A stretch of DNA of 64,000 nt from Candidatus Oxydemutator sp. (GTDB lineage Bacteria > Pseudomonadota > Gammaproteobacteria > Poriferisulfidales > Oxydemutatoraceae), in NCBI GenBank assembly GCA_965203445.1, contig OZ241883.1, positions 1,024,001 through 1,088,000 on the forward strand, written 5' to 3'. The position numbers and the translations under genes are program-made. Shown here one piece after another: positions 7,121 to 62,054 of this stretch. The notes below the pieces were generated by a model. It had not been told where the DNA came from. It made no database searches and was given only the letters and a program-made list of their open reading frames with translations. Positions within the stretch are counted from its first letter, which is position 1; the number at the start of each line of letters is the position of its first letter.

Positions 7121-7174
7121 TTTGCGGTACTCACCGTACCGTTCGCCTTTCGCAGGACTGTTCCCACGTTAGTG

Positions 7175-7354: not shown

Positions 7355-7551
7355 TCTTCTCGCAGTAATTCTACAAATTTCCGAAAGACTTTTTGCTCTG
7401 CTGTCGGTCGTCTTTGATGGATAATCTGTGCGATTGTCCTGGCCAAGTATACATGACCCTATGCTTCCGATAAGCCACCACGGTTCAGGCATTCCGGCGA
7501 GCTATCCTGGTGTAAGGGCTTAGGCCATGGCTTATAGGGGGGTAGTTCCCT

Positions 7552-8055: not shown

Positions 8056-8066
8056 GTTCAGTCTCC

Positions 8067-8507: not shown

Positions 8508-8526
8508 TATTCAATTCCTCCGAATT

Positions 8527-8937: not shown

Positions 8938-8959
8938 TTGAGACCTCTACCGTACATGG

Positions 8960-9628: not shown

Positions 9629-9640
9629 TTTTATTTTCCT

Positions 9641-9724
9641 TTACTCCCCCCACCACAAATAGGGTTTGAGCAGGGCTATGAAGTGTTGTTTTTCTTCTGC
9701 GGTCATTTTGGCGGGGTTGATTTT
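9641..9724 (-). repeat. Direct-repeat copy of the last 84 bp of mod
   Basis: 80/84 identical to 11606-11689; reads ...INPAKMTAEEKQHFIALLKPYLWWGE* versus mod ...TNPAKMTAEEKQHFITLLKPYLWWGE*. Confidence 0.95.
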
Positions 9725-11601: not shown

Positions 11602-11605
11602 CTTC

Positions 11606-14230: not shown

Positions 14231-14264
14231 CTGCCTTACCCTAAGTTTTCAAGCACGTCCTCTT

Positions 14265-14287
14265 AAAAGGAATTATCAGAGGTTCCC
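14265..14287. repeat. IS-end-like repeat, copy of the right end of the 14636-14722 element
   Basis: aaaaggaattatcagaggttccc versus aaaaggaattctcaagaggttccc at 14699-14722. Confidence 0.6.
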
Positions 14288-14293
14288 TTGCGC

Positions 14294-14599
14294 TTAACGC
14301 CAATAATTATTGGCGATGGCGATAGTTTTGAATTCTATGGCGACCAGCTCCGTTGCCTGCATCAACAATGCAGGATCATCCTGGTATTTCTGGCGGACCG
14401 CCATTTTTATGCCTGAGTCTCGCTGAATGGTGCCTATGGTTTTTCTGACTATTTTTATAGCGAGCATGCGTCCCTCAAGGGGCGTTTTGGTAATGAGGCT
14501 CGGCATGTAATCCGCAGGTTTCTTGGCCTCTTCGGCATATCCGATGGTTCCGACGAACAAAAAAGGCAGGATAAATATGGTTTTCAGCATACGACGCAT
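14294..14599 (-). CDS. Hexameric tyrosine-coordinated heme protein (HTHP) family with signal peptide
   Basis: PSLITKTPLEGRMLAIK...KYQDDP...EFKTIAIANNYWR matches the HTHP pattern as I recall it; hydrophobic N-terminal leader ending GYA. Confidence 0.75.
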   Translation of the reverse strand: MRRMLKTIFILPFLFVGTIGYAEEAKKPADYMPSLITKTPLEGRMLAIKIVRKTIGTIQRDSGIKMAVRQKYQDDPALLMQATELVAIEFKTIAIANNYWR

Positions 14600-39831: not shown

Positions 39832-40860
39832 CTATAATGCGGGTGTCGGCGGGCGCAATTCGGTCAGCGGCCAGCGCGCGTGTACGTGCGGCGCCGGGTC
39901 GGCGGTCTGGCCGGCTTGCAGGCGCAACATTCCGGCGTTGGCGATCATGACGCCGTTGTCGGTGCACCACTTCCTCTTCGGATACGTCACTTCGCAGCCG
40001 TCCGCGCCGAGCTTGGTGAGTTCGGCGCGCAGGCGTTTGTTGGCGGCGACGCCGCCGACGGCGACCAGGCGGTCCATGCCGGTGCGTCCGAGCGCGCGTC
40101 GGCAGCGTTGCGCCAGGGCGCCTACCGCCGCCGTCTCGAAGGCACATGCCAGGTCGGCACGGTCCTGTTCGTCGTCGCCGCCGTTGTCGTGCCGCAGTTT
40201 GTGCAGGGCATGCAGCGCATGGGTCTTCAGGCCGCTGAAGCTGAAGTCCAGGCCCGGATGGTTCGCCATCGGACGCGGGAACACGAGGCGTCCGGCGCGC
40301 CCGCGTCGCGCCAACCGTTCCAGCTCCGGGCCGCCCGGATAGCCCAGGCCCAGCATCCGGGCGACTTTGTCAAAGGCCTCGCCGACCGCGTCGTCGAGCG
40401 TATCTCCGAGCAGTTCGTAGCGGCCCAGGCCGTGCGCCGCGACCAGCTGGGTGTGGCCGCCCGACACCAGCAGCGCCAGGTACGGCAGCGGCGGCGCCTG
40501 CGGCAGCGTGCACGCGAGCATGTGCGCCTCCATGTGGTGCACGCCGATGGCCGGTTTGCCCAGTGCCCACGCCAGGCCGTGTCCGAATACGGCGCCGGCC
40601 AGCAGCGCGCCGCTCAGACCGGGACCGGCGGTGTAGGCCACCGCGTCCACCCGTTCGAGCGGCTCGTCGCAGAGCGCCTCGCGCAAAAGCGGCAGCAATT
40701 TGTGCACGTGGTCGCGCGCCGCCAGTTCCGGCACGACGCCGCCGTGCGGGCGGTGCGTCTCGATCTGGCTGAACAGCGCCTCGGCGACGACGCCTTCCTC
40801 GGAGTCCACCAGTCCAATGCCGGTTTCGTCGCACGAGGTCTCTATGCCGAGAACGCGCAC
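39832..40860 (-). CDS. tsaD: tRNA threonylcarbamoyladenosine biosynthesis protein TsaD
   Basis: [32 protein letters not shown]. Confidence 0.97.
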
Positions 40861-40863
40861 GAG

Positions 40864-41424
40864 TCAGTAGAGCGAGCGCAGCGCGTTCAGCGTCAGGTAC
40901 AGCAAAAGCAGCACCGCCAACGCGCTGAAGTCTATCGCTCCGAACGGCGGCAGCAGGCGCCGCGCTGGCTCCAGCAGCGGCTCGGCTATGCCGTGGAGCA
41001 ACGACAGGAACGGGTTGGCAAACGCCTGCGCCCCGCTGACGAACCAGCTGCTGACGGCTATGATAAAGATGCTGACCATGTACGTTTGCACCAACAGTTC
41101 GCCAAGCTGTATCAGCCCCACCGTCAGCAGCGTCGGCGCCGGCGGCGAATATCCCTGAAAGCCGGCGACGAGGAACAATTCGAGCACCTTCACCAAATAG
41201 GCCAGCAGCCAGCAAGAAGAGTCCCATCTGCCGGTGCTTGGAATGATCTTTCGCGCCAGCGCGAGCGGCGGTTCGGTCAGCCGCACGATGGTCTGCGACA
41301 ACGGGTTGTAGAAGTCGGCGTGCGCCATTGCCAGCAGGCCGCGCACCACCAGCAGCAGCGCATAGAAGGTCAGCAGCGTGTCGGTTGCGAACAGCAGGGC
41401 GCGCTCGGGCGTGCCTTCGAACAT
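40864..41424 (-). CDS. yggT: YggT family membrane protein
   Basis: ADFYNPLSQ..VRLTEP, EPLLEPARRLLPP..IDFS. Confidence 0.9.
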   Translation of the reverse strand: MFEGTPERALLFATDTLLTFYALLLVVRGLLAMAHADFYNPLSQTIVRLTEPPLALARKIIPSTGRWDSSCWLLAYLVKVLELFLVAGFQGYSPPAPTLLTVGLIQLGELLVQTYMVSIFIIAVSSWFVSGAQAFANPFLSLLHGIAEPLLEPARRLLPPFGAIDFSALAVLLLLYLTLNALRSLY

Positions 41425-42257
41425 CAGTCGTGCTCCGGTGCCGCGACGTTCGCGGCGATCTCGGCGGCGCGCGCGGTCGCGGCCGCCAGCACCGCTTCGG
41501 CGAGTTCGGCGATGCCCGCTCGCTCCATTGCCGCCAAGCCGCGTTCGGTGGTGCCGCCCGGCGACGTCACCTGGCGGCGCAGCGCGGCGACGTCGCCGCC
41601 GGCCGCGTCGGTCAGCGCGGCGGCGCCGCGGAAGGTGCCGACCGCGAGCCGCCGCGCGGCGTGCGCTTCAAGCCCCAACCTCGCGGCGGCGTCCGCGAAT
41701 GCCTCGGTTACGCGAAAGAAATAGGCCGGGCCGCTGCCGGACAGCGCGGTGACCAGGTTCATTTGTGTCTCGTCGTCCAGCCATACCGTGGTCGCGGCCG
41801 TGCCCAACAGCGCCTCGACCTCGTCGCGTTGCGCCTGCGACACGCGCGCGCCGGCGCACAACGCGGCGACGCCGCGCGCGGCCGCGACCGGTGTGTTCGG
41901 CATACAACGGATAATCGCGAGGCGTGCGCCGCTCCACGCGTCGAGCAGCGCCAGCGGCACGCCGGCGGCGACCGAGACCAGCGGCGCGCCGCGCCGCGCC
42001 AGCACGCCGGAGACGTCGCGGCAGACCGCCTGGACGGCGTCGGGTTTGACGCACGCGAAGGCCACGTCGCAATCCTCGACCGCGTCGCGGTTCGAGGTCG
42101 CCGTCGCAAGCCCCGGATGGCGCGCGGCCAATTTCGCCAGCCGCCCGGCGTCGGGGTCGGATACGCGAAACGAACCGGCCTCGAGACCGCCGGCGGTGAG
42201 GCCGTCCACCAGGCAGCGCGCTATATTGCCGGCGCCGAGGAACGCGACCTTCGGCAT
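41424..42257 (-). CDS. proC: Pyrroline-5-carboxylate reductase
   Basis: FLGAGNIA, RCMPNTP, TALSGSGPAY, VTSPGGTT. Confidence 0.95.
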   Translation of the reverse strand: MPKVAFLGAGNIARCLVDGLTAGGLEAGSFRVSDPDAGRLAKLAARHPGLATATSNRDAVEDCDVAFACVKPDAVQAVCRDVSGVLARRGAPLVSVAAGVPLALLDAWSGARLAIIRCMPNTPVAAARGVAALCAGARVSQAQRDEVEALLGTAATTVWLDDETQMNLVTALSGSGPAYFFRVTEAFADAAARLGLEAHAARRLAVGTFRGAAALTDAAGGDVAALRRQVTSPGGTTERGLAAMERAGIAELAEAVLAAATARAAEIAANVAAPEHD

Positions 42258-42760
42258 CACGCGGTCTCGCGCTTTTTCAGCAACACCGAGGCGCATACCA
42301 GCGCCAGCGCGATGAACAACAGCAGCGTCTGCTGTGCGAGGGTCAGGCCGAGAAAAGTCCACGCGACTTCAGCACATTCGCCGGCGCTGTTCAGCACCGT
42401 TTGCAGCGCCTCGAGCAGGGGGAATTGGTCGAACAGGTAATCCAGCCCCGGCGTGCACTCCGGCAGTTCCTCGGGCGGCAGGCTTTGCAGCCAGACGTGG
42501 CGTCCGGCCAGACCGATGCCGGCGGCGCAGACCAGCAGGCCGGCCGCGGCGTAGAGGCGTTGGCCGAGCACGCCCGGGTCGTGCAGCGCCGCGGCCAGGA
42601 ACAAGGCCGCGGCCAGCGCGACGACCCAGCGGGCGAGGATGCAAAGCGGGCACGGTTCGAGACCGAGCGCGCCTTGCAGCAGGAAAACCGCGACGGTCAG
42701 CGCGCCGGCGGCGAGAACGAATCCGCCCGTGTGCAGGCTGCGGCAGGAAGGCAGAAGCAT
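42257..42760 (-). CDS. dsbB: Disulfide bond formation protein DsbB
   Basis: LEPCPLCILAR, RHVWLQ, second Cys pair. Confidence 0.92.
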   Translation of the reverse strand: MLLPSCRSLHTGGFVLAAGALTVAVFLLQGALGLEPCPLCILARWVVALAAALFLAAALHDPGVLGQRLYAAAGLLVCAAGIGLAGRHVWLQSLPPEELPECTPGLDYLFDQFPLLEALQTVLNSAGECAEVAWTFLGLTLAQQTLLLFIALALVCASVLLKKRETA

Positions 42761-42997
42761 GGCCGCGCATTATACGCCGCCGCAACCGGCCAAAAAACTT
42801 TGTCGTTGTTGGCACTCCGATTGTCGGCGGGCCACTCTCGGTTCTTTTGCGGCGGCCACGGCCGTCGTCGGCGCAACCGTCGTTGGTGTCGGTGTCGGTC
42901 TCGGCGATGCCGATTGATTGTGGCGGGAGGCTGAAAACGGCGCGGATCGTCGGCACGTTGTGCCTCCAGCGGATGATTAAGTGAGGAAGCGCGGGTC

Positions 42998-43027
42998 AAA
43001 AAAGGTGGCGCCCCGGGCGGGGCGCCT
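42998..43027 (-). terminator. Rho-independent terminator downstream of nrdB
   Basis: Minus-strand ggcgccccg/cggggcgcc hairpin followed by a T6 tract. Confidence 0.7.
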
Positions 43028-43086
43028 TGCTCAAGGAAGAGCAAAAAGATGGAGGAGGAAAGGAATGGAGGAGAAAATGCGGTGGT

Positions 43087-44331
43087 TCAATCCCAGTTGA
43101 GCGCTCCGCCGGTCTGATATTCGATCACCCGCGTCTCGAAGAAGTTCTTCTCTTTCTTCAGGTCCAAGATCTCCGACATCCACGGAAACGGGTTGGTCGC
43201 GCCCGGGAATTGCTCGGGCAGCTCGATCTGCGACAGCCTGCGGTTGGCGATGAACTCGACGTACTGCTTGAACAGGTTGGCGTTCATGCCGAGCATGCCG
43301 CGCGGCATCGTGTCCTCGGCGTAGAGCTGCTCGTAGCGCACGCCCTCCAGAATCAGCTCGGTTACCTCCCGCTGGAAGTCCTCGTTCCACAGGTGGGGGT
43401 TCTCGGTCTTGATCTGGTTGATTACGTCTATGCCGAAGTTCATGTGCATTGACTCGTCGCGCAGGATGTACTGAAACTGCTCGGCCACGCCGGTCATCTT
43501 GTTGCGCTGCCCCATGGACAGGATCTGCGCGAAGCCGACGTAGAAGAAGATGCCCTCGAACACGACGTAGAAGGCGATCAGGTCGCGCAACAGGCGCCGG
43601 TCGTTGTCGGGAGTGCCGGTGCGGAACTCAGGATCGCCCAGGCTCCGCGTGTAGGGCAGCGCCCATTCGGATTTGCGCGCCACCGACGGCAGCTCGCGGT
43701 ACATGTTGAACACCTCGCCCTCGTCCAGGCCGAGCGACTCGATGCAGTACTGGTAGGCGTGGGTGTGCAGCGCCTCCTCGAACGCCTGGCGCAGCAGGTA
43801 CTGGCGGCATTCGGGGTTGGTGATATGGCGGTAGAGCGCGAGCACCAGGTTGTTTGCGACCAGCGAGTCGGCGGTCGAGAAGAAGCCCAGGTTGCGCTTG
43901 ACCACCATGCGCTCGTCCTCGCTCAGGCCGTCCTCGCTCTTCCACAGCGCGATGTCGGCGGTCATGTTGATTTCCTGCGGCATCCAGTGGTTGTTGCAGG
44001 CGGCCAGGTATTTGTCCCAGGCCCACGTGTATTTGAACGGCACCAGCTGGTTCAGGTCGGCGCGGCAGTTGATGATCCGCTTGTCGTCCACCTGGATGCG
44101 CGAGGCGCCCATTTCTATCGCCTCGAGACCGGTGGCGCCGCCCGCGCCCCGCCGGCCCGCGCCGTTGGTGTCCTTTCCGGTCTTGCGCGGCGCATCCGGC
44201 GCGTCGGCGGCGGGCGCCGTCGGCGGCACCGCGCCCGGGGAGGGCGGAGGGCGCGCCGTGCGCGCGCGCATCGGCGGCGGCGCCAAGTCTGCCAGCGGGT
44301 CTTTCCATTCGGACGGGTTTATCGTCTGCAT
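43087..44331 (-). CDS. nrdB: Ribonucleotide reductase class Ia beta subunit
   Basis: [16 protein letters not shown] (radical Tyr present), [14 protein letters not shown]. Confidence 0.95.
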
Positions 44332-44356
44332 GTTCGCCTCCTCCTTTTGGGTATCG

Positions 44357-47266
44357 TCATTGGCAGGCCTCACATTCGGCGTCGTCCAGCAGGCACGCGC
44401 GCGACGCGTCGCCCGTGGCGGACGCCTCGGCCGCGGGCGCGGTCGGCACCGCGTTGAGGTTGCCGTCGGTTTTCTCCATCGTGCTTTTCTCGACGTGCGT
44501 GGCACCCAGCGAGCGCAGGTAGTACGTCGTTTTCAGGCCCCTGAGCCACGCCAGCTTGTACAGGCTGTCCATCTTCCTGCCGTCCGGCTCGGCCATGTAC
44601 AGGTTCAGCGACTGCGCCTGGTCTATCCATTTCTGGCGCCTGGCCGCGGCCTCGACCAGCCAGCGCGGGTCAATCTCGAACGCGGTCGCATAGAGCGACT
44701 TGATCTCGTCGGGCACGCGGTCGAGCCGCTGGATGCCGCCGTCGTAGTACTTCAGGTCGTTGACCGTGACCTCGTCCCATAGCTCGAGCTTTTTGAGGTC
44801 GTCCACCAGGTACGAGTTGATGACCGTGAACTCGCCCGACAGGTTGGATTTGACGAACAGGTTGCGGTAGGTCGGCTCTATGCTCTGGGTCACGTTGCAG
44901 ACGTTCGAGATGGTCGCGGTCGGCGCGATCGCCATCGTGTTCGAGTTGCGCATGCCGACCGTCTTGACGCGCTTGCGCAGCGCGTTCCAGTCGAGCGTCG
45001 AGGAGTCGTCCACCTGCAACAGGCCGTCGCGCGCCTTGGCGAGCAGGCGCAGCGAATCAATCGGCAGCACGCCCTGGCTCCACAGCGAGCCCGGGTAGCT
45101 CTGATAAACGCCGCGCTCCTCGGCCAAGTCGGTCGAGGCCTTGATCGCGCAGTAGCTGACCGCCTCCATCGAGCGGTCGGCGAACTCCACCGCCCGTTCG
45201 TCGGCGTACGGCAGGCGCAGCTTGTAGAGCGCGTCCTGAAAGCCCATCAGCCCGAGTCCGACCGGCCGGTGGCGCAGGTTGGAGTCGCGCGCCTTGCGCA
45301 CGCTGTAGTAGTTGTAGTCGATTACGTTGTCGAGCATGCGCATCGCGGTGCCGACGGTTTTCTCGAGCCGCTCCATCAGCAGGCCGTTCTCGTCCACGTG
45401 CAGCGCGAGGTTGACCGATCCTAAGTTGCACACCGCGATCTCGTCGTCCGACGTGTTCAGCGTGATCTCGGTGCACAGGTTGGACGAGTGGACGACGCCG
45501 GCGTGGCGTTGCGGCGAGCGCAGGTTGCACGAGTCCTTGAAGGCCAGCCACGGGTGGCCGGTCTCGTAGAGCATGTTCAGCATCTTGCGCCACAGGTCGG
45601 CGGCGCGCACGCGCTTGAAGTTGGCAATCCTGCCGGCGTCGGCGTCGGCCTCGTACTCGGCGTAGCGCTTCTCGAATTCCTCGCCGCAGAGCTCGTGCAG
45701 ATCGGCCGTCTCGCTCGGCGAGAACAGCGTCCACGTGCCGTCTTCCTTGAGGCGCTTCATGAACAGATCCGGGATCCAATTCGCGGTGTTCATGTCGTGC
45801 GTGCGGCGGCGGTCGTCGCCGGTGTTTTTGCGCAGCTCGAGGAACTCCTCGACGTCCAGGTGCCAGGTTTCGAGGTAAGCGCACACCGCGCCCTTGCGCT
45901 TGCCGCCCTGGTTGACCGCGACCGCGGTGTCGTTGGCCACTTTCAGGAACGGGACGATGCCCTGCGACTTGCCGTTGGTGCTTTTGATGCGCGAACCCAT
46001 CGCGCGCACGCGCGTCCAGTCGTTGCCGAGACCGCCCGCGAACTTCGACAGCATCGCGTTGTCCCGCACGGCCTCGAAGATGCCGTGCAGGTCGTCGGCC
46101 ACCGTGGTCAGGTAGCACGACGACAGTTGCGGGCGCAGCGTGCCGGAGTTGAACAGCGTCGGCGTCGAACTCATAAAGGCGAACGACGACAGCAGATCGT
46201 AGAACTCGACGGCGCGCCGCTCGCGCTCCACCTCGTTCATCGCCAGTCCCATGGCCACGCGCAGGAAGAACGCTTGTGGCAGCTCGAAGCGCACCTCGTC
46301 CCAGTGGATGAAGTAGCGGTCGTAGAGCGTTTGCAGCCCGAGGTAGTTGAAGGCGTGGTCGCGCTCGGGCTTGATGGCCGAGGCCAGGCGGTCGAGGTCG
46401 AATTCGTCGCGCAGCCTCGGGTCGAGCAGCTCCAGCTCGCAGCCGCGCTCGACGTAGCGCTTGAAGTAGTCGGGGTAGCGCGCCGTCATCTCGCCGTGCG
46501 TCGCCTCGTCGGGGCGCCCGGCCAGGAAGCTCAGCGCCTCGCGGCGCAGTTTGTCCAGCAGCAGGCGCGCCGAGACCAGACTGTAGTTCGGCTCCCTCTC
46601 GACCATCGCGCGCGCGCTCATGATCAACGCGACGCTGACGTCCGCGGCCCTCATGCCGCTGAACAGGTTGCGCAGCGTCTCCTCGACGATCGGCTGCGTC
46701 TCGACGCACGCGGTGTCACGGCATGCCTCCTCGACGATAGTGCGCAGGCGCGCGAGGTCGAGCGGCTTCATCGTTCCGTCCTCGTGCTCGACCGCGATCT
46801 CGCCGTCGGTGCCGGCGTCGTCGTCGCGTCGCCGTTGGTCGTCGTCGAGGCGTTCCCGGGCGCGCTGCTCGCGGTAGAGGACGTAGGAGCGCGCGACTTT
46901 GTGGTGGCCGTCGCGCATCAACGCCAGTTCGACCTGATCCTGTATATCCTCTATATGAAAGGATTCTCCGCCGCTGCGATTGCGCGCCAGCGCGGCCACG
47001 ACCTGAGCGGTCAGGCCGTGGACGATCTCGTGGACGCGCGGGGACGCCGCCGCGCTTCTGCCCTCGACGGCCAGAAACGCCTTGGTCAGCGCGAGCGTGA
47101 TCTTCGACGGATCGAACGCGGTGACCTTGCCGTTGCGGCGTATCACCTTATACTGCGTCGCCGCCGTCGTTGTCGTCGCGGTCGTGGAGGGGGCTTCGGT
47201 CGTGGCGACGGCGGCCGGATTTTCGGCGTTCGTGGTCGCAGCCGGCGCGGTCGGTTGTGTTTGCAT
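44357..47266 (-). CDS. nrdA: Ribonucleotide reductase class Ia alpha subunit with N-terminal ATP cones
   Basis: VIRRNG ATP cone plus a second cone, [29 protein letters not shown]-terminal CEACQ. Confidence 0.96.
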
Positions 47267-49449: not shown

Positions 49450-50436
49450 ATGGAATCTCGCGTGGAAACGATCACCCGACGTTATCCGATCACACTGGTG
49501 ACGGCGTACTTTAATCTGGGAGACAGGTCCGGGTTGGGAAGAGACCATCATTTTTATGATGACCGGATGCGTTACTTTTTCCCGCATATACAATGGCCTC
49601 TGGTGATTTTCTGTGATAAGGAATCTTTGGATGGAATCAAGCAGTTAAGGGGGGGGAAGCCGGCGACCTATATCGTCACCACGCTCGAAGAGTTCCACGT
49701 CTATAAGTACTATGGGCGCTTCTATTACGAGGGCATCTGTGGGCAATGGGCTTTTGGATACCAGGATTTACTTATGGTCTGGAATGAAAAGCTCAATTTC
49801 GTTCGACGCGCGATAAAGTTGAATCCCTATGAATCGGATATGTTTTTCTGGTGTGACGCGGGCTGCTTCAGGGGAGCAGGGGTAGGCGGGGCTGGCATTA
49901 TGAGACTGTCTGATCGAACGGAGTGGCCTAATTTTCAAGTCTGTCGAAAGCTGCCCCAGGACAAGGCCATTTTTATGCGAGCAAGTCAAGTCGGCGAAAA
50001 AATTTACGTTCGCGCGACTTTTTTCGGTGGTGCAGCCAAACCCATGCTGCGGTGGTGTGATGCTTTTTATCAGCACCTTGCTGATCGGGTTGATAAGAAC
50101 CTGCTGTTATTCGCTGATGAGCGTAGCATGTCTGACGTTTGCGACGAGCGGCCGGACGTTGTACACCTGCTGTCTCCGGACGATGTTGCATGGGTAACAA
50201 AGGTGGTAGGAAATGATTGGCAGGGAGATTGGCAGGGCTTTTTCAAGTGGTATTTTTTGAACGGCGGTAAGTTTCCGTTGGGCTTTTTGTGCATAAGAAT
50301 TTCTTATTACCTGAGGAACCGACAATTGATGAAGTGGCTGCTGTCAGAACTTCTTTATCAATCGAGGCGCTGGTTAAGAAGTTCACCGGATCGGTCACCG
50401 CAAAATCTTCGCATGAGACCGCCGCGATGGAAGTGA
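49450..50436 (+). CDS. HtrL/YibB (WlaTC)-like putative glycosyltransferase
   Basis: ITLVTAYFNL, WNEKLNFV..AI..NPY.S..FFWCDAG, FFGG; lower GC than its neighbours. Confidence 0.65.
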   Translation: MESRVETITRRYPITLVTAYFNLGDRSGLGRDHHFYDDRMRYFFPHIQWPLVIFCDKESLDGIKQLRGGKPATYIVTTLEEFHVYKYYGRFYYEGICGQWAFGYQDLLMVWNEKLNFVRRAIKLNPYESDMFFWCDAGCFRGAGVGGAGIMRLSDRTEWPNFQVCRKLPQDKAIFMRASQVGEKIYVRATFFGGAAKPMLRWCDAFYQHLADRVDKNLLLFADERSMSDVCDERPDVVHLLSPDDVAWVTKVVGNDWQGDWQGFFKWYFLNGGKFPLGFLCIRISYYLRNRQLMKWLLSELLYQSRRWLRSSPDRSPQNLRMRPPRWK

Positions 50437-50718: not shown

Positions 50719-51918
50719 TCAGCGTTTGGCCGTGTGTTTCGGAACCCGTTCGCGCGCCTCTTTGATGAGAACCCTCTGATTGTTGCCCAACCCCTCGACG
50801 TCGCGCAGCACGATGCGCTCGCCCGCTTTGAGGCCGTGCTCGATGATGATTTCATCGCCGTTGCGTCCGCCTACGGTGACGCGGCGACGCAACACGATTT
50901 CGTCTTCCTCGACGAACACGAACGGTTGGCCGTTGATGTATTGGATCGAGGTTACCGGCACGACGACGGCGCCCGTGCGCGAGTGCCCCGGCAGACGCGC
51001 CTGCGCGGCCGCGCCGGCTTGCAGGCCGTCCCCTTGCAACCTGATCTTCGCGGCATGGGTGTAGGTTTCGCGGTTGGGATCGGTTTGCAGCGACATCAGC
51101 GTGCCGATGTGCGTCCGCCCGCCGACCGTCACCTCGACCGCAAGCCCCAGTTCGAGCGCCGCGGCCCGTTCGTTGCTGACGTTCAGAAACAGGTCGAGTT
51201 CGTCTGCCACCACCAATTCGGCGACCGACTTGTCCTTGCCGACGTAGTCGCCGACGTCGGCCTCGATTTTGTTGACGGTGCCGGCGAAGGGAGCGTGCAG
51301 CGTGGTGCGGTCGAGGTTGCGCCGCGCCTGGTCGTGCAGGCTGCGGTTGAGCCTGGCGTTGAGCTTGCCTTCCTCGACCGCGTGCGTGAGCCGCACCCGT
51401 TCGGAGCGCAAGTCCACCAGTTTTTGGCGTTCGGCGTCGAGCAGCGAGGACGAGGCCAGCTGCTGTTCGCCTAGCCTCTCGATGCGCGCGACTTCGCGCT
51501 TGCGCAGTTCGACGTTTTGCGCGGCGAGTTCGAGCAGGCGCGCGTCTCTTTCGAGTTTCTTCTCGATCAGTTCGAGGCGGGTTTGCGCCTGCACCAGGGC
51601 GTCGCGGTAATCGCCGTCGTCGAGTTGCAGCAGCGCCTGCCCCTGGCGCACGCGCGTGCCGGCCTCGACGTTTTTGGCGACGACGCGCCCCGCCACCTCG
51701 AACCGCAATTCGCCGACGCGCGCCGGTTGCAGGCGTCCGGTCAGCAGATGGCTCGGCGTGATTTCACGCGCGACGATCCGGCCGACCTCGACCAGCCGCG
51801 GTGCGTCCACGACGCTTTGCTGCGCTCCTTGTGGACGCAGCCACGTCAGCAGACTGGCGACGACTGCGATGGTTACGGCGACAATCGCGCCTGAGGCGAG
51901 CTTTTGTGACATGCGCAT
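50719..51918 (-). CDS. RND efflux periplasmic adaptor (membrane fusion protein)
   Basis: N-terminal anchor, lipoyl-like EVAGRV...G..V..GQ.L, coiled coil, LHAPFAGTV, GLKAGERIV. Confidence 0.88.
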   Translation of the reverse strand: MRMSQKLASGAIVAVTIAVVASLLTWLRPQGAQQSVVDAPRLVEVGRIVAREITPSHLLTGRLQPARVGELRFEVAGRVVAKNVEAGTRVRQGQALLQLDDGDYRDALVQAQTRLELIEKKLERDARLLELAAQNVELRKREVARIERLGEQQLASSSLLDAERQKLVDLRSERVRLTHAVEEGKLNARLNRSLHDQARRNLDRTTLHAPFAGTVNKIEADVGDYVGKDKSVAELVVADELDLFLNVSNERAAALELGLAVEVTVGGRTHIGTLMSLQTDPNRETYTHAAKIRLQGDGLQAGAAAQARLPGHSRTGAVVVPVTSIQYINGQPFVFVEEDEIVLRRRVTVGGRNGDEIIIEHGLKAGERIVLRDVEGLGNNQRVLIKEARERVPKHTAKR

Positions 51919-51989: not shown

Positions 51990-53216
51990 TCAGACGTTTT
52001 CGACGGGCAGGCGGGCGACGGCGAGCGTCGGTTTCAGCGCGTAGCCCTGGATCCTCCTCGAAAACTCCTGAAGTTTGTGCAAACCGGTCGCTTCGGCCTG
52101 GGTGCACCACTCGCGCAGCGAGCTGCACAAGTGGTGGTGGTCGCCGTGGTGTGTGCTCCACAGCTTGTGCAGCCTGTGGTTGAACTCGTGCACCTGTTTC
52201 AACCTCGGATTGTTCACCAGCACCCGTTTCAGGGTGGCACGGTCTTTCGCGCTGACGTGGCGCTCGTGGCGCAGCATCGCGCGCCTGGCTCTCAACAGCA
52301 GCTGGCGATGGGCGCCTTCGGCGACCGCCAGCTCGGCGCGTACGACCGGCACGACCACGGTCGCGGCGTATTCACGCATCACGTGAAGGCGGCCGTGGAA
52401 CAGCGCCGCGGCGGTTTTCAGATCGAGGGGGCCGTCGTGCGCCGAAGTGCGCTTCGGCATCGGCGCAAGACGCAACACCCGCGCCAAACCGAGTGCGCGC
52501 AACACGCGGATGTAGAGCCAGCCGACGTCGAACTCCCACCACTTGATCGAGAACTTCGCGGAACTCGGAAAGGCGTGATGGTTGTTGTGCATTTCCTCAC
52601 CGCCGATCAGGACGCCGACGTTGCAGAAGTTGGTCGAGTCGTCGTCGGTGGCGAAGTTGCGGTAACCGCCGAAATGCCCGATGCCGTTGACGACGCCGGC
52701 GGCGAAAAACGGTATCCACATCATCTGCAAGGCCCACAGGGCGATACCGAAAAAACCGAGCAGGACGTATTCCAGCACCAGTAGCACCGCGATGCCGATA
52801 CTCGGATGACGCGAGTAGAGGCGCTGCTCCAGCGCGTCGCCCGGCGTGCCGCGCCCGTAGTCCTCAAGCGTCGCCTCGTTGTACGCCTCGTTGCGGTAGA
52901 GGTCGGCACCGCGCAGCAGCACCGAGAGTATGCCCTTGAAGGCGGGGCTGTGCGGATCGTCGGCGGTCTCGCACTTGGCGTGGTGCTTGCGGTGTATCGC
53001 AACCCACTCTTTGGTGACCATGCCGGTCGTAAGCCACAGCCAGAAACGCATCACGTGGTTGACGGCGGGATGGAAATCCACGCTGCGATGCGCCTGCGAA
53101 CGATGCAAAAACAACGTTACACAGGCTATCGTCACATGCGACAACGAGAGCGCCAGGATCAGATAGCCCCACCACGGGAGTTGCACCAGCCCGTGTCCGG
53201 TCAGTAATTCAAGCAT
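51990..53216 (-). CDS. desA: Membrane fatty-acid (acyl-CoA delta-9 type) desaturase
   Basis: His boxes HRSQAH, HRKHH, HNNHH; WWEFDVGW. Confidence 0.9.
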   Translation of the reverse strand: MLELLTGHGLVQLPWWGYLILALSLSHVTIACVTLFLHRSQAHRSVDFHPAVNHVMRFWLWLTTGMVTKEWVAIHRKHHAKCETADDPHSPAFKGILSVLLRGADLYRNEAYNEATLEDYGRGTPGDALEQRLYSRHPSIGIAVLLVLEYVLLGFFGIALWALQMMWIPFFAAGVVNGIGHFGGYRNFATDDDSTNFCNVGVLIGGEEMHNNHHAFPSSAKFSIKWWEFDVGWLYIRVLRALGLARVLRLAPMPKRTSAHDGPLDLKTAAALFHGRLHVMREYAATVVVPVVRAELAVAEGAHRQLLLRARRAMLRHERHVSAKDRATLKRVLVNNPRLKQVHEFNHRLHKLWSTHHGDHHHLCSSLREWCTQAEATGLHKLQEFSRRIQGYALKPTLAVARLPVENV

Positions 53217-53404
53217 AGCGCGCTACGATACCCCAAAAACGCCGCCAGTCAACCGACAATGTCTCCGGCCGCCCAGGCGTCGCTTATGCCAGATGTTTTT
53301 GAGCGGCAAAACGGGGCAAAAGCCGCGCCGGCGCGTGTATAATCCGGCAACGGGGTTTGCTTCATGCCGAACGCATTGTGCGAGCAAAACAAATGGAGGG
53401 ACTT

Positions 53405-53776
53405 GTGAACCAGGATAAAACACCAGTAAGCTTCCTGAAGACAAAGGAAACTATGGCAATAGCAGTGGCCGATCGCTATTGTGGGGATGAAAAATTCCGG
53501 AACCTGTTTGACCATGATCCGAAAGCGGCTTTCGCCCAGTATTTGGATATTGATCGTAAACATTGGCCGCCCGACATGGGGCTGGTAATACTGCGCAACG
53601 ATGACAAATGTATGCATATAGGAGTACCGGCGTCGCATACGGACGACAATGCGGAAATTTCCGATTCGGATCTGGACAATCTGTCGGGAGGTTCTGGCTA
53701 TGCCCTGTACTTCGCCCTATGGGGGAGACCCCCGACGGCGGCGGTAAACGATGGTTCGGGGTGGAGGTACATTTAG
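53405..53776 (+). CDS. NHLP (nitrile hydratase-like leader) RiPP precursor peptide
   Basis: GTG start after GGAGGG; leader D.KFR..F..DPKAA...PP.MGLVIL...MHIGVP...EISDSDLDNLSGG, then core SGYALYFALWGRPPTAAVNDGSGWRYI. Confidence 0.8.
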   Translation: MNQDKTPVSFLKTKETMAIAVADRYCGDEKFRNLFDHDPKAAFAQYLDIDRKHWPPDMGLVILRNDDKCMHIGVPASHTDDNAEISDSDLDNLSGGSGYALYFALWGRPPTAAVNDGSGWRYI

Positions 53777-53944
53777 TGACATCGCAGACGTGATACGTCC
53801 AGTTCCTGATCGAGGAGCAACAACTATAAATACTACCCATGAAGGCACATGGAGCGATACGCTACTCGATAAGGCGATACTGAACACCGGCCGCTACAAA
53901 CTCGAACTATGCTTGGCATAGTCGTACATGGAAAGGAGTATCCG

Positions 53945-54307
53945 ATGCCCACAATAGAAATTACCCACGACAACTTTCAGCAGACGCTGCAAGACAACGA
54001 CGTCGTGGTGCTCGATTTTTGGGCCTCGTGGTGCGGGCCGTGTCGTTCGTTTGCGCCGGTGTTCGAGGCGGTTTCCGACAATCACGCGGACGTTGCGTTC
54101 GGCAAGGTCAACACCGAGGAGCAGCAGGATCTGGCCGCGGCCTACCGCATCCGTTCGATTCCGACGCTGATGCTGTTTCGTGAGCGCGTGGTGTTGTTTT
54201 CGCAGCCGGGTGCGTTGTCGGCGGCGCAGCTTGAGGATCTGGTTGCAAAGGCCCAGGCGCTCGACATGGACGAGGTGCGCGAGGAGATCAGGAAGCAGGC
54301 GGAATAG
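53945..54307 (+). CDS. Thioredoxin
   Basis: LDFWASWCGPCR, RSIPTLM; AAGGAG before ATG 53945. Confidence 0.95.
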   Translation: MPTIEITHDNFQQTLQDNDVVVLDFWASWCGPCRSFAPVFEAVSDNHADVAFGKVNTEEQQDLAAAYRIRSIPTLMLFRERVVLFSQPGALSAAQLEDLVAKAQALDMDEVREEIRKQAE

Positions 54308-55741: not shown

Positions 55742-56230
55742 TCAAGCTGGCATAGCGGTTGCTTTGATTTGTCGTTGTCCTCCGACACGCCTGTTTTCGA
55801 TTGTCCGTGCTTCTTTTAAGAATGCCAGATAGAAATCCTCAAAAACATTGGCCCAGTCCGATTGTATGCCGTCGGCCGAGTCTGATTCCCAGTCAGCCGT
55901 TTGCATATCATGTTGAGAATCATATTGGGGATATGGGGGCATGAGACGAAATGAGGATATTATATTCCGCCAGGAGGACCTTTTCCCTTGCCATTGTCGC
56001 TGTCTCTTTTCTAAAAGCCGGGCCAATTCTTTGTCATAGATTTCCAGTGTCTTGGCGGCGTTGTCTTCCCGGTCGGGAGATGCAAAAAGATCCAACTGTT
56101 TGTCCACCATCAGCGTCTTGGCGTCTTTGATCTGGTTTGATTGCTCGACGTAGCGGACAAGCAATTCGGCGAGTTCGATATAGTTTTTTTCCATGATTCT
56201 CGCAAGAACCTCTTTTTCCGCGAGTCTCAT
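55742..56230 (-). CDS. Hypothetical protein, lower GC
   Basis: 162-aa ORF with protein-like composition; no family recognised. Confidence 0.55.
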   Translation of the reverse strand: MRLAEKEVLARIMEKNYIELAELLVRYVEQSNQIKDAKTLMVDKQLDLFASPDREDNAAKTLEIYDKELARLLEKRQRQWQGKRSSWRNIISSFRLMPPYPQYDSQHDMQTADWESDSADGIQSDWANVFEDFYLAFLKEARTIENRRVGGQRQIKATAMPA

Positions 56231-57808: not shown

Positions 57809-59019
57809 TGGCGCGGTTGCGGAACATGCTCAAGTCGAAGGCGCCGCTGTTCGAGCCGGGCGGGCGCTGGCAGCGGTGGTATCCGATCTACGAGATGGTG
57901 GACACCTTCCTCTATTGGACGCCCGCGACCACCGCGCGCGCGCCGCACATACGCGACGGCCTGGACATCAAGCGCGTCATGAGTTACGTCGTCGTCGCGA
58001 CGCTGCCGTGCGCCGTGATGTCGTGGTTCAACACCGGCTATCAGGCAAACGTCGCGCTCGCCGAGATGGGGTTGGCGTCGCTCGCCGGATGGCGCGGCGC
58101 GCTGACCGCGGCTTTCGGCGTCGGCCACGATCCGGCCAGCGTGCTCGCGTGCCTGTGGCTCGGCTTCGCCCACTTTCTGCCGGTCTACGTCGTGACGCTG
58201 CTGGCCGGCGGCTTGTGGGAGGTCGTGTTTGCGACGGTGCGCGGCCACGACGTCAACGAGGGCTTCTTCGTAACCTCGATATTGTTCACGCTGACGCTGC
58301 CGCCCGATATTCCGCTGTGGATGGTCGCGCTCGGCATCTCGTTCGGCGTCGTCATCGGCAAGGAGGTGTTCGGCGGCACCGGCAAGAATTTTCTGAACCC
58401 GGCGCTGACCGGGCGCGCCTTTTTGTTTTTCGCCTATCCCGCCTTTATGTCCGGCGACGAGGTGTGGGTCGCGGTCGACGGCTACAGCGGCGCGACGCCG
58501 CTCGCCGCGGCCGCCGTCGGCGGCATGGACGCCGTCGCGCGCGAGGGCTACACCTGGTGGCAGGCGTTCGTCGGCGTCATTCCGGGTTCGCTCGGCGAGA
58601 CTTCGACGCTCGCGTGCCTGCTCGGCGGCCTGTTTCTGGTGTACACGCGCATCGCGTCGTGGCGCATCATACTCGGCGTGCTCTTAGGCATGGTCTCGAC
58701 GTCGTTGTTGTTCAACTGGATCGGCGGCACCAACCCGATGCTCGCGACGCCGTGGTACTGGCACCTGGTGCTCGGCGGTTTCGCGTTCGGCACGGTGTAC
58801 ATGGCGACCGACCCGGTGTCCGCGGCCGCCACCGACGCCGGGCGCTGGATCTTCGGTTTTCTGATCGGCTTCATGACGGTGCTGATCCGCGCCGTCAACC
58901 CGGCTTTCCCGGAAGGCATCATGCTGGCGATCCTGTTCGCCAACGTCTTCGCGCCGACGATAGACCACTTCGTGGTGCGCGCCAACACCCGCAGAAGAAG
59001 GAAGCGCTACACCCGCTGA
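57808..59019 (+). CDS. nqrB: Na+-translocating NADH:quinone reductase subunit B
   Basis: PHIRDGLDIKR, FGGTGKNFLNPAL, DGYSGATPL FMN-attachment site, MATDPVS. Confidence 0.96.
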   Translation: MARLRNMLKSKAPLFEPGGRWQRWYPIYEMVDTFLYWTPATTARAPHIRDGLDIKRVMSYVVVATLPCAVMSWFNTGYQANVALAEMGLASLAGWRGALTAAFGVGHDPASVLACLWLGFAHFLPVYVVTLLAGGLWEVVFATVRGHDVNEGFFVTSILFTLTLPPDIPLWMVALGISFGVVIGKEVFGGTGKNFLNPALTGRAFLFFAYPAFMSGDEVWVAVDGYSGATPLAAAAVGGMDAVAREGYTWWQAFVGVIPGSLGETSTLACLLGGLFLVYTRIASWRIILGVLLGMVSTSLLFNWIGGTNPMLATPWYWHLVLGGFAFGTVYMATDPVSAAATDAGRWIFGFLIGFMTVLIRAVNPAFPEGIMLAILFANVFAPTIDHFVVRANTRRRRKRYTR

Positions 59020-59064
59020 CGGATTGGGGACGAAGCAGGGAAGCGGCGCCGCACGCAACAAAAA

Positions 59065-59099
59065 TCCCTCTCCCTTTGGGAGAAGGGCAGGGGTGGGGG
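59065..59099. repeat. REP-like palindromic element
   Basis: tccctctccctttgggagaagggcaggggtggggg hairpin; 22/25 match to the reverse complement of 13192-13216 inside mod. Confidence 0.6.
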
Positions 59100-59186
59100 C
59101 AGCGCCGTCCCTGCGACTGCGTCGGGCCGGGAACTTTCTTTGGTGGCGCCGGGGCCGAAGCAAAAAGAGGGAGAGACTATGCCGGC

Positions 59187-62054
59187 TTAGTTTGCCGCGT
59201 GATGAGATTCCATCGGGCGCGTATACGTACACGGCGGTTCGGCCCGATACTCGGAACATCCCCAGAACGAGCCGTATTTCCCCTCGATCATCCGCAGGAC
59301 GCCGATCTTGCATCTCGGGCAGACGCGAGCGGCAGCACCGCATGCGTCGTTGGAGCATTTCGCCTGGCGGCCTGCGACGATCAGGTAGCCTTCGGAACAT
59401 TCGTCGCAACGCGGTGCCCGGTAATCGCAGAGCGGGTGATTGGTGCAGCGTCTTGTCCTGCCGCTCCGTGATACAACCAGGCTGCCGCCGCAGCGCGGAC
59501 GCGGACAGGGCGGCGCGTCTTCGTCCATGAACCGGCCGATCCGGCGAACGTCGTGATGCTTGCGGCGCAGTTCCTGCACAAACACGGATGGACGCGCGGC
59601 GTCGGTGATCAGATAGACTTGACGTCGCGCCCGCGTCATCGCCACGTAGAAAAGACGGCGTTCCTCGGCGTGCGCGAACGTGCCTGGTTCGCTGCGCACG
59701 ATGTTGAGCAGCGGATCGTCTTCTCGTTTCGCCGGGAGGCCGTAGAAACCGTCCATCAGATCGAGCACGATGATGTAGTCGGCCTCGCGCCCTTTGGCAC
59801 GGTGGATTGTGCTGAGCTCGATGCGAATGTTCGGGCGCGGCGAGCGATACCTTCTTTCCTCCAAGCTTTTTCGGTAGCGCCCCAGCAGCAGTACCGAGGC
59901 CTTCCGTGACGGCGGGACACGACGGACGACGTCGGCGAGCGCATCGGCGACGCCCGCGGGTTGTTCGTCCGTCGCGACGATGGTCACGCCGTCGTCCGCG
60001 CCCGCCGTTTTGCCGCGCAATGTGCGTCGCGTCTGCTCCGGGTTGCGCTGGATGAACGCGCTCGACGGGCGAATGATCGGCTCGCCGTAACGGAACGTGC
60101 GCGTCAGCTCGCGTCGCTGCACAAAACCGAGATGATCGCCGCACGAGGTCATAAGATTGACGTCGCTGCCCGCGAATCGGTTGATAGACTGCCAGTCGTC
60201 GCCGACCAGAAAGTAGCGGACGTCGGGCGCGTTCAACGCCTGGATCAGGGCCATGCGTCCCGCCGAGATGTCCTGAAACTCGTCGACAAGCACGTAGCGG
60301 AACGGCGACGCCCAGCGCCCGCCTCGGATGGCGTCGACGGCACGGTTGATCAGATCATCGAAATCAATCGCGCCTTCCTTCTTGAGTATTTTCTCGTAAC
60401 GATCCCAGACCTGCTCGAACAGGTTGAGAAACGCGGTGCTGCGCAGCGCGTGCGGCAGAGCCTTGGCGCGCTTGCGCAATTCCTCCATCGTGAGCCCGGC
60501 CGTCTTGACCAGACTCAGGAACGTCGCCAGCAGTCGTGCCAGCCACGACTCGATGATTTTGCGCAGATTGTCTATGAAACGCTCAATCGGTGTCGGTTTG
60601 AAATGCACACCTTGTTCTCGCAGTTGTTGCTCCAGCTCCGGGAGCAGCGTGTTGTCCTGGTTTTGCCAGCTGAACGTCTCGATCAACCGCGTTCCGTATT
60701 GTTCGTGAATACTGCGTTTCCAGCGGACGCTCTCGAGGTAGCCCTTGAACCACGGTGGCGCCTGCCCGTCTGCGTTCAGCGCGAAGTGCTCGATGTAGAT
60801 GTCGTGCCCAGGCAGGTAGAAGTCGGGTTGATACTGACGGTGCCGCGACGTGGCCGTGTCGACCTGGTAGGGCGCTTCGTATCGGTAAGAAACCCCTTTG
60901 AGCGCGAGGAAGTTGGCGATCTTGAGCTCCTCGTGGCTCTTGACCAGCTCGCCGTTCAAGGTCCGCTTTTCGATGCCGCGCACGTGGTTCATATAGTCGG
61001 AGAGGTTGTTGAATTCAAACGGCGAGCGGTACGGCTGGCCGTGGTAGACCGCGAACTCGGCAATCTCTTTCGCGTCGGTGGGAGAGATCAGCAGGCCGTC
61101 GAGGATTTTGTCGAACGCCCGATTGCGCACCCGCTGATCCTCCGCCAGGAGCGAGATTGTCGGGGCCGTGGAAACTTGGCCGATGATGTAGCGCCCGAAG
61201 GCGTGAAACGTGCTGACCGCGGCGCCGGCGAGGTCGCGTCCGAGGCGTTTGTGGATTTCTTTCGCCGCATCCCGGTTGTAGGCCAGGACGAGAATCTCAT
61301 CGGGCCGCGCGCCCTCGTTGTGGATGAGGTGCGCGATCTTGCCGGTGATCACCCCCGTCTTGCCGGTTCCCGCGCCCGCCAGCACCAGCGTGGTGTCCTC
61401 GTCGGTGGCGATGGCCTTCGCCTGCTCGTCCGTCGGCGTCATATCGAGTGACGTCTTCATCGCATCGCCTACGTCGGCGACCGCCGTCGTGATATATCGG
61501 TTGTTCGCGTCTTCGCGCGCGCGCGCAAAGTCGTCGGCTGCGGCCACGGAGTGAAGATGACCGAATGCCCGAAGTGCCGCCTCGTCCAGCTGGGCGCGCA
61601 CGATTGTAGATGTGACCAGCGACAACGTCCGCTCCATCTCTTCGCGCAGTCGTTCGCCGTCGCCGTACCGCAGATAGCGCTCGCCCGCGAGCGAGCGTTC
61701 CAGTTGCCTCTGTCGTTCGACCAGTTGCCCGCCATGGCGCTCGGCAAGTGCATGGGCCTCGTCGCGCAACGACGCCGCAAGCGATGCGGCCGCTCCTTTG
61801 GGCAGTCCGCCGATGGAATACTCAAGTCCGTCCAGGCGACGAAACGTCAGCCGCGTCCAAAACCATGACGGTTTTTCGATGACCTGGTCGAGCGCGTCAA
61901 ACGGCAGCTCAACGCGCCCGCGCCGCGGCACGCCTTCGATACTGAGCAGCCGTTCAGAGAACGTGACGGAGGCCGCGGTGCGGGCGATAAGGCGGTACGG
62001 CCACCACGCACGAGCGACAATGGCGGGGGCCGGGCATTCAGCGGTCATCCGCAC
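59187..62054 (-). CDS. UvrD/helicase IV (HelD)-like SF1 helicase with inserted nuclease-like domain and C-terminal Zn ribbons
   Basis: AGAGTGKT, VDEFQD, VGDDWQSI, HRAKGRE, EERRLFYVAMTRA; insert YQPDFYL...IEHFAL; several CxxC motifs at the C-terminus; start uncertain. Confidence 0.88.
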   Translation of the reverse strand: MRMTAECPAPAIVARAWWPYRLIARTAASVTFSERLLSIEGVPRRGRVELPFDALDQVIEKPSWFWTRLTFRRLDGLEYSIGGLPKGAAASLAASLRDEAHALAERHGGQLVERQRQLERSLAGERYLRYGDGERLREEMERTLSLVTSTIVRAQLDEAALRAFGHLHSVAAADDFARAREDANNRYITTAVADVGDAMKTSLDMTPTDEQAKAIATDEDTTLVLAGAGTGKTGVITGKIAHLIHNEGARPDEILVLAYNRDAAKEIHKRLGRDLAGAAVSTFHAFGRYIIGQVSTAPTISLLAEDQRVRNRAFDKILDGLLISPTDAKEIAEFAVYHGQPYRSPFEFNNLSDYMNHVRGIEKRTLNGELVKSHEELKIANFLALKGVSYRYEAPYQVDTATSRHRQYQPDFYLPGHDIYIEHFALNADGQAPPWFKGYLESVRWKRSIHEQYGTRLIETFSWQNQDNTLLPELEQQLREQGVHFKPTPIERFIDNLRKIIESWLARLLATFLSLVKTAGLTMEELRKRAKALPHALRSTAFLNLFEQVWDRYEKILKKEGAIDFDDLINRAVDAIRGGRWASPFRYVLVDEFQDISAGRMALIQALNAPDVRYFLVGDDWQSINRFAGSDVNLMTSCGDHLGFVQRRELTRTFRYGEPIIRPSSAFIQRNPEQTRRTLRGKTAGADDGVTIVATDEQPAGVADALADVVRRVPPSRKASVLLLGRYRKSLEERRYRSPRPNIRIELSTIHRAKGREADYIIVLDLMDGFYGLPAKREDDPLLNIVRSEPGTFAHAEERRLFYVAMTRARRQVYLITDAARPSVFVQELRRKHHDVRRIGRFMDEDAPPCPRPRCGGSLVVSRSGRTRRCTNHPLCDYRAPRCDECSEGYLIVAGRQAKCSNDACGAAARVCPRCKIGVLRMIEGKYGSFWGCSEYRAEPPCTYTRPMESHHAAN

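Follow-up and report, generated by a model that had tools for sequence, protein, structure and literature searches.

An NHLP-type peptide precursor gene without recognisable modification or export machinery in a Candidatus Oxydemutator genome

The double-glycine class II bacteriocins and microcins, for example colicin V with CvaAB-TolC, are exported through C39-ABC/HlyD/TolC systems. The prochlorosins combine many Nif11-leader ProcA precursors with one ProcM and C39 export. Closest to the gene described here are the nitrile hydratase-like leader peptide (NHLP) precursors or proteusins, among them PoyA, OspA, SrpE, MprE7 (8TB1) and DprE2 (9CJX). The gene lies at 53405..53776 (+) of a 64,000-nucleotide stretch of Candidatus Oxydemutator sp. 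(assembly GCA_965203445.1, contig OZ241883.1, positions 1,024,001 to 1,088,000), hereafter called the window, and encodes 123 amino acids from a GTG start to a TAG stop. The genome, here G000, is a single contig of 2,378,814 bases rated 100% complete with a genome GC content of 0.636. It was compared with three sister genomes of the same genus, G011 (85% complete), G012 and G013, the latter two of about 1.8 Mb.

Like the proteusin precursors, the open reading frame (ORF) has a leader of about 95 residues of the nitrile hydratase alpha type, an acidic [LI]xxxx[LI] element, a Gly-Gly site and a short variable core, and in the sisters only, YcaO, a PoyD-like radical S-adenosylmethionine (SAM) protein and the NHLM transporter parts ABC1, ABC2 and HlyD co-occur with such precursors. 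Unlike the proteusins, the ORF scores below the TIGR03793 cut-off and carries a 3-residue insertion that is common only to two relatives, P0002 and P0003. Unlike azole-type cores, its core has no runs of Cys, Ser or Thr, and G000 has neither maturase nor exporter. The sisters resemble the prochlorosin producers, having dozens of precursors with one leader type and unrelated cores, arrayed or scattered, together with a single copy of each enzyme and of the exporter; 29 N11P precursors are given for Prochlorococcus marinus in an excerpt of Haft 2010 (PMC2887384). They differ from the prochlorosin systems in that the leader is NHLP and not Nif11, the enzymes are YcaO, radical SAM and oxidases and not a lanthionine synthetase, most cores are free of Cys (22 of 27), and the system is gone in G000. 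With the double-glycine bacteriocins the ORF would share a Gly-Gly site that is cut by a transporter peptidase domain, and its core may likewise be unmodified. Their leaders, however, have 15-30 residues and are not related to nitrile hydratase, compared with 96 residues here, and their genes normally adjoin a cognate transporter and an immunity gene.

We concluded that the gene is probably a stranded survivor of an NHLP precursor repertoire, whose product can be neither modified, cleaved nor exported by any recognisable route. At the level of the whole system neither an NHLM exporter nor a tailoring enzyme was found in G000, and the ORF is therefore not to be counted as a biosynthetic locus. 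No double-glycine peptidase or recognisable RiPP maturase was found among the families searched, thus the precursor can still be translated but is without a recognisable processing route.

The initial annotation had described an ORF with a nitrile hydratase-like leader followed by a 27-residue core with 3 Tyr, 2 Trp and 1 Phe and without Cys, and this description proved accurate. The leader of 96 residues (53405..53692, +) ends with EISDSDLDNLSGG, and the core SGYALYFALWGRPPTAAVNDGSGWRYI (53693..53773, +) is 22% aromatic and contains no Glu either. The GTG at 53405 was preferred as start since it agrees with the N-termini of P0002 and P0003 in the alignment (MNQ[DN]K...), and a Shine-Dalgarno-like GGAGGG (53395..53400, +), read from the sequence, lies 4 nucleotides upstream of it. 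The longest frame of the same ORF in the ORF listing begins with TTG (53357..53776, +, 139 amino acids), and the protein collection's own gene call (P0001) uses the ATG at 53393 (+, 127 amino acids). On the evidence of phmmer relatives at E 4e-27 and 6e-27, the ORF is not a chance reading frame. The gene as assembled was confirmed by contigs from the public runs X1-X3, of which X1 and X3 are possibly the source sample; in X2, from a second study, an identical contig of 1,096 bases at depth 3 spans 52909-54004. A scan of the + strand upstream of the gene for promoters and terminators gave nothing above the level of shuffled sequence. The sole Rfam match, to PYLIS_2, reached 24 bits where the gathering score is 36, and was taken as a chance match.

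The identity as an NHLP precursor held, although the match to the curated family was weaker than the initial annotation had implied. The TIGR03793 profile, matched over positions 9-77 of 77, gave the ORF 22.2 bits at E 9.2e-5, and its cut-off is 50.9; all six NHLP-like ORFs of G000 stay below this cut-off, at 22.5-45.7 bits. TIGR04509 gave 20.9 bits (cut-off 34), and a Pfam search with the ORF gave no match. A family profile, A1, was built from the leaders of the ORF and 17 relatives. This profile matched the solved proteusin leaders 8tb1 (E 3.7e-12, 49 bits) and 9cjx (E 9.1e-10), and next the nitrile hydratase alpha chain 1v29 (E 1.6e-4), with about 25 further alpha chains listed. The ORF leader keeps all 13 of the A1 columns that are at least 90% conserved; its 122 bits on the profile are those of a sequence that went into building it.

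The final 13 residues of the leader, E-I-S-D-S-D-L-D-N-L-S-G-G, match the published NHLP/N11P motif at each position. According to excerpts of Haft 2010 (PMC2887384), this motif has acidic residues at positions 1, 4 and 6, Leu-type residues at 2 and 7, Ser or Thr at 3, Val or Leu at 10 and Gly-Gly at 12-13, and NHLP leaders are without the metal-binding Cys cluster of catalytic nitrile hydratase. The ORF leader has two isolated Cys only (C26 and C69) and no clustered Cys motif. Its I-x4-L stretch corresponds to the LXXXXL element, which part of a study of proteusin leaders (PMC10858898) gives as the recognition site for proteusin-modifying enzymes and for the LahT peptidase. Judged from these leader matches, the ORF belongs to the NHLP clan as a true though divergent member, and its double-glycine site is canonical.

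In the AlphaFold2 model of the ORF (mean predicted local distance difference test, pLDDT, of 69.5) the leader is predicted to form three helices, a beta-hairpin and a short helix, followed by I-S-D-S-D-L-D-N-L-S-G-G. Residues 11-70 have a pLDDT of 74-92, and the core, with a pLDDT below 50, is predicted to be disordered. Foldseek ranked 8tb1 and 9cjx first and second, with non-significant values (E 0.79 and 1.0; TM 0.32-0.43). The same two chains were the only ones among 424 with a VIA Z of at least 2 (Z 2.6, root-mean-square deviation 4.0-4.1 Å over 61-70 residues).

Searched exhaustively with phmmer at E <= 1e-3, 1.84 billion cluster representatives gave 30 matches, one being the query itself. 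P0005 was dropped, being an 868-residue repetitive and unrelated protein without a Gly-Gly leader, and P0019 and P0021 (803 and 882 residues, with 4-5 matching stretches) were left out of the family set. The other 26 matches have 103-165 residues and a common architecture, a conserved leader with the pattern Y..D..FR..FD.DPK...HRND.KCWH..LP...D.D...[SA]GG joined to unrelated tails. The closest relatives are P0002 and P0003, with 53-56% identity in phmmer and 47-51% in a three-way alignment, and only these two have the 3-residue insertion of the ORF; members of the sister arrays are 30-42% identical. No counterpart of the 27-residue core was present in any of the relatives compared. A further search for homologous proteins returned only the query itself among 2 candidates. 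The core had first been regarded as special for its aromatic residues and its lack of Cys. This view was not borne out: with the query counted, 22 of 27 family representatives have Cys-free cores, and P0003 and P0007 (23%) and P0004 (21%) are about as aromatic as the query, the mean being 9.8%.

When the single protein was used as query against 19 genomes of the taxonomic family, only the 3 other genomes of the same genus matched; the 15 genomes from five other genera gave no match. The leader family is nearly confined to one genus. With the A1 profile at E <= 1e-3, G000 gave 6 matches, G011 11, G012 30 and G013 32, so that the scan for other NHLP precursors that had been proposed as a check did find them in G000. 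At E <= 1e-5 the profile matched 17 of the 53 genomes of the order, namely 4/4 of this genus and 13/16 of one other genus, one of which, G052, has 41 leader copies. Many of the sister copies form tandem arrays, for example directly behind the nqr operon, in which the cores are wholly different from gene to gene. Such arrays were found in G013 at L025:9720-13217 (behind nqrE), L026:10107-11895, L027 and L029, and in G012 at L030:9753-12041 and L031. The cores in the sister genomes are unrelated to each other, mostly free of Cys and 15-70 residues long. In the named collection, family loci are titled 'uncultured candidatus Porisulfidus sp.', 'Gammaproteobacteria bacterium' and 'Arenicellales bacterium'. 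No published description of this leader family was found in a limited full-text literature search.

The sister genomes hold what G000 is missing. Each of the three has exactly one C39 peptidase domain (128-134 bits) and one YcaO, all three have the three-gene exporter defined by TIGR03794, TIGR03796 and TIGR03797, and all three have a PoyD-like radical SAM protein with 319-324 bits on TIGR04517, against a cut-off of 325 (319.6 in G013); in G012 the PoyD-like gene is interrupted by a contig end. The export cassette of G013 runs from a TolC-like gene through NHLM HlyD, ABC1 and ABC2 to two ThcOx/SagB-type genes and a sulfotransferase gene, with a histidine kinase and a response regulator upstream, and the gene order of the cassette in G012 is identical. 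ABC1 of G013 consists of peptidase, permease and ATPase; its score was 957 bits (cut-off 853), compared with 752 (709) for ABC2 and 220 (156) for NHLM HlyD. The two SagB-domain proteins of G013, of 510 residues, scored 153 and 157 bits (cut-off 78), and Pfam assigned both to ThcOx and Nitroreductase. The YcaO of G013 is a fused leader-binding/SagD-type cyclodehydratase (TIGR03604, 260 bits, cut-off 219). It lies in a 5.2-kb cluster that extends from dsbB to the ribonucleotide reductase (RNR) beta gene and comprises YcaO, the PoyD-like gene and two NHLP precursors with cores rich in Cys, Ser and Thr. The enzymes of the sisters are known by gene presence, and they may modify the Cys-free cores as well.

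Over the order, NHLM_micro_ABC1 was above its cut-off in 15 of the 53 genomes. Every one of them belongs to the 17 genomes that the leader profile matches, and ABC1 is lacking in the other 36. Leader matches without ABC1 were found only in G000 (6 matches) and in G049 (1 match). In the second genus a lone precursor lies about 2-5 kb from ABC1 in the cases compared. Co-occurrence of leader and exporter was, in the relevant part of Haft 2010 (PMC2887384), the basis for proposing this transporter as the one that handles NHLP leaders, and this correlation recurs in the new clade.

At both sites where the sisters carry this machinery, G000 has a short stretch in its place. At the site of the export cassette, the 14,636 bp of G013 (L035:3693-18328) are replaced by 88 bp in G000 (C1:1,301,995-1,302,082; L036:5995-6082). 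The missing 14.6 kb holds the response regulator, the histidine kinase, TolC, HlyD, ABC1, ABC2 and the two SagB/ThcOx genes. On one side of the 88 bp remain residues 344-386 of the response regulator, a C-terminal remnant of 43 residues, and on the other residues 58-237 of the 333 of the sulfotransferase. Since the flanking genes are truncated, we concluded that the difference is a deletion in the G000 lineage. Slt, O-acetylhomoserine sulfhydrylase and an anti-sigma-type kinase are kept at the site with 65-87% identity.

The site of the YcaO/PoyD cluster lies in the window, about 10 kb upstream of the precursor gene. Here a stretch of 215 bp between dsbB and the RNR beta gene (42783..42997) stands for 5,222 bp of G013 (L055:3348-8569), with no remnant left. 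The sequences on both sides, 40006-42782 and 42998-44998, match the G013 flanks of the cluster. Contigs of runs X1 and X3, both of which may be the source sample, bridge 42783-42997 without difference.

The initial annotation had noted that maturase and exporter genes were absent from the window and had proposed a dispersed precursor processed in trans. The absence extends to the whole genome, and processing in trans found no support: the genome-wide scan for maturases and C39 exporters that had been named among its checks found none in the families searched. No C39 domain scored above the cut-off in the G000 genome. A C39-like match of 15 bits at 1,134,092 is a GspA domain inside a type II secretion operon and was rejected as exporter. 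The best match to TIGR03796 in G000 reached 297 bits (cut-off 853) over profile positions 160-708 and has no peptidase part. In tblastn against G000, HlyD of G013 gave no match, and ABC1 and ABC2 matched generic ABC genes only, at about 27-38%. Searches of the G000 genome gave no YcaO, no PoyD-like radical SAM protein, no LanC and no P450. Matches to Trp halogenase cover the FAD motif only (profile positions 1-36), and none was accepted as a true halogenase. There are ten radical SAM genes in G000, none of them in the window. Nine are MoaA, MiaB, BioB, PqqE, HemW, LipA, a PA0069-family protein, QueE and EpmB, which by these family assignments are housekeeping types; the tenth, near paralogue F, has no family over cut-off. 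The chemistry suggested for the core is affected accordingly: for cross-linking and halogenation no enzyme was found in G000, and epimerisation fits the PoyD-like gene of the sisters but not G000.

The gene stands alone among housekeeping genes, as the word orphan in the initial annotation had implied, and the low-GC patch between desA and thioredoxin reported there was confirmed, with a GC content of 0.49-0.53 over 53250-53999 and of 0.63-0.73 in the flanks. On one side the neighbour is a DesA-family desaturase (51990..53216, -; 535 bits on NF049918), on the other thioredoxin. By blastn against the sister loci L025, L027, L030 and L053, homology to the desA block ends at 53255 and homology to the thioredoxin-hemL-nqr block begins at 53942. 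The segment in between (53256..53941, 686 bp), which carries the gene, had no DNA match in these loci and is specific to G000. In G013 about 200 kb separate the two blocks, therefore the gene is at a rearrangement junction. No meaningful repeats, integrase or tRNA that would mark the segment were found. The desA orthologues of all three sisters adjoin NHLP precursors, and the gene may have descended from such desA-linked precursors or have come from outside. The third-position GC content of the ORF is 0.55, compared with about 0.56-0.82 in the sister precursors and 0.8-0.9 in housekeeping genes. Low GC is thus a trait of the family, and it leaves the choice between an inherited and an imported origin undecided.

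In the sisters, the leader would most likely be read by a shared maturase set and by the NHLM export system. The set would consist of the YcaO cyclodehydratase, the PoyD-like protein acting as epimerase, the two ThcOx/SagB-type proteins acting as flavin oxidases, and the sulfotransferase. The C39 domain of ABC1 would then cut after Gly-Gly, and ABC1/ABC2-HlyD-TolC would export the core. In G000 both gene sets are absent from their syntenic sites, one of which is a clear deletion scar, and we propose that the repertoire has most likely shrunk from roughly 30 copies to 6. The gene may be a remnant of the desA-flanking precursors seen in the sisters.

Several observations weigh against a stranded survivor. 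The gene shows no decay; the frame, the Shine-Dalgarno-like site, the 13 conserved leader columns and the double-glycine motif are intact. The nucleotide divergence between G000 and the sisters is roughly 20%, at which a frame of 123 codons that had long been neutral should have acquired stops; therefore either the loss was recent or the gene is still under selection. At 42783-42997 the polarity of the change is unproven because no remnant remains. The absence of machinery holds for the chosen families, and an unrecognised protease or maturase may exist. A leader match without ABC1 is also found in G049, so this persistence is not unique to G000. P0002 and P0003 could not be placed in a genome, and scans of metagenome and genome contigs with alignment A2 matched no relative. 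That the Gly-Gly precursors of G000 are still used, with selection keeping leader and cleavage motif intact after the maturase and exporter had been lost, either through an unrecognised protease or exporter or as uncleaved NHLP-fold proteins, we nevertheless regard as distinctly improbable.

A recent horizontal arrival on the 686-bp low-GC segment, with cognate machinery that was never in this lineage, would agree with the lack of a match to 53256-53941 in the sister loci, with its position exactly at the junction of two blocks that are distant in G013 and with its GC content of 0.49-0.53 against 0.636 for the genome. It would also explain why the gene groups with P0002 and P0003 (47-56% identity and the common insertion) and not with the sister arrays (30-42%). 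The low third-position GC is typical of the sister precursors too and is no proof of transfer, the segment has no repeat, integrase or tRNA, and desA adjoins precursors in 3/3 sisters; we consider such an arrival unlikely. Whether the gene was inherited or imported, the outcome is alike, a precursor without machinery. PqqE, which is dedicated to PqqA, joins Glu and Tyr of its own substrate by a cross-link. It is present in G000 and could be cited in favour of a live dispersed precursor, for which enzymes elsewhere in the genome modify, cleave and export an undescribed peptide, as could the intact gene with its leader motifs and Gly-Gly site. The core, however, has no Glu, and it has no Cys either, whereas MNIO enzymes of the hvf type act on Cys-repeat peptides. 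NHLP-class precursors are commonly encoded far from their enzymes, as stated in part of Haft 2010 (PMC2887384). Against this, the complete genome yielded no C39, YcaO, PoyD-like protein, LanC, P450 or true halogenase, its radical SAM genes are of housekeeping types but for the tenth, which belongs to no family over cut-off, and the machinery that co-occurs with the leader family is missing at the syntenic sites. A live precursor therefore seems decidedly unlikely.

We also considered that the product is a small protein of the NHLP fold that stays uncleaved inside the cell and has nothing to do with secreted peptides, which would explain the persistence of this and other copies in the absence of an exporter. 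Several NHLP-like ORFs have been kept in G000, three of them without Gly-Gly site or core, and the leader is predicted to be folded (pLDDT 74-92 over residues 11-70), in agreement with nuclear magnetic resonance work on proteusin leaders (PMC10858898). No such function is known for the NHLP fold, disorder is predicted for the variable tail, and the conserved motif up to Gly-Gly is the part that peptidases and maturases recognise, as described in portions of PMC10858898 and of Haft 2010 (PMC2887384). We hold this explanation to be very improbable.

If the gene is indeed a stranded survivor, a precursor can be well formed and yet yield no product, and counting orphan NHLP ORFs overcounts peptides where the machinery has been deleted. 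The sisters, with 30 and more NHLP precursors per 1.8-Mb genome and single-copy enzymes, would be the proteusin counterpart of the prochlorosin libraries. These precursor libraries are a good target for heterologous expression and more interesting material than the G000 gene. Sisters with the system and G000 without it form a natural contrast pair, which could show the purpose of the libraries and the rate at which stranded precursors decay. Should the precursors of G000 still be used after all, the genome would be a natural knockout that points to an exporter-independent function of the proteusin type in a bacterium that is likely sponge-associated.

The other leader matches of G000 are likewise single genes amid housekeeping genes. 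At least three NHLP-like ORFs are without Gly-Gly site or core and end soon after 'LP' or 'MP' (C1:2,114,887-2,115,252, -; 1,854,543-1,854,893, +; 1,310,855-1,311,205, +); these three may be precursors that were truncated, or they may form a class of their own, of stand-alone proteins with the NHLP fold. The ORF at C1:2,114,887-2,115,252 adjoins a gene with an integrase core (rve). Paralogue B has a core, THVQFDTFWRSPQYYGYP, that is aromatic-rich and free of Cys too. An ORF with a Nif11-type leader lies 3 kb upstream of paralogue B (C1:1,151,259-1,151,777; L011:5259-5774, +) and matches TIGR03798 (35.4 bits, cut-off 32.3) and Pfam Nif11; G000 is without machinery for either. Paralogues C (C1:419,008-419,382) and E (C1:93,035-93,454) have hydrophobic cores rich in Gly and Ala that resemble class IIb bacteriocins, with scores of 19.0 and 20.6 bits on TIGR03949 (lactobin A/cerein 7B class IIb) against a cut-off of 21.5. 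Look-alikes of this type of core occur in G013 at L027:240-833 and L029:5077-5616, and L027:240-833 adjoins an ORF resembling left-handed beta-helix transferases, as does paralogue C.

Around the precursor gene, the desaturase at 51990-53216 bears a 'DesA/ISL3 alpha-bundle tail' domain (NF049919, 92 bits). Its Pfam match to an ISL3 transposase is due to this tail, which is known in the desaturase family and does not indicate a transposon. Beyond the desaturase lies a HlyD-like gene (50719..51918, -) that was tried as a part of an NHLM exporter and rejected; TIGR03794 was not matched at E <= 0.001, and the gene encodes an RND-type periplasmic adaptor instead (TIGR01730, 173 bits). No homologue of this adaptor was found in the sister loci examined. 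The nqr operon seems to have been split by rearrangement in G000 (59009-59190): homology to the contiguous nqrA-E operon of the sisters ends at 59009, the end of nqrB, and the next gene, for a UvrD-type helicase, runs in the other direction (59187-62054). Two further genes of the window have a GC content of about 0.47-0.52. One (49450-50436, +) encodes 328 residues with a faintly YibB/HtrL-like N-terminus (28 bits, cut-off 265), and the other (55742-56230, -) encodes 162 residues and is 50% identical to a G013 gene between hemL and nqrA. Finally, a run of about 8 genes at 5942-14599 (-), with a third-position GC content of 0.40-0.65 and no NCBIfam match at E <= 1e-30, is probably a foreign island.

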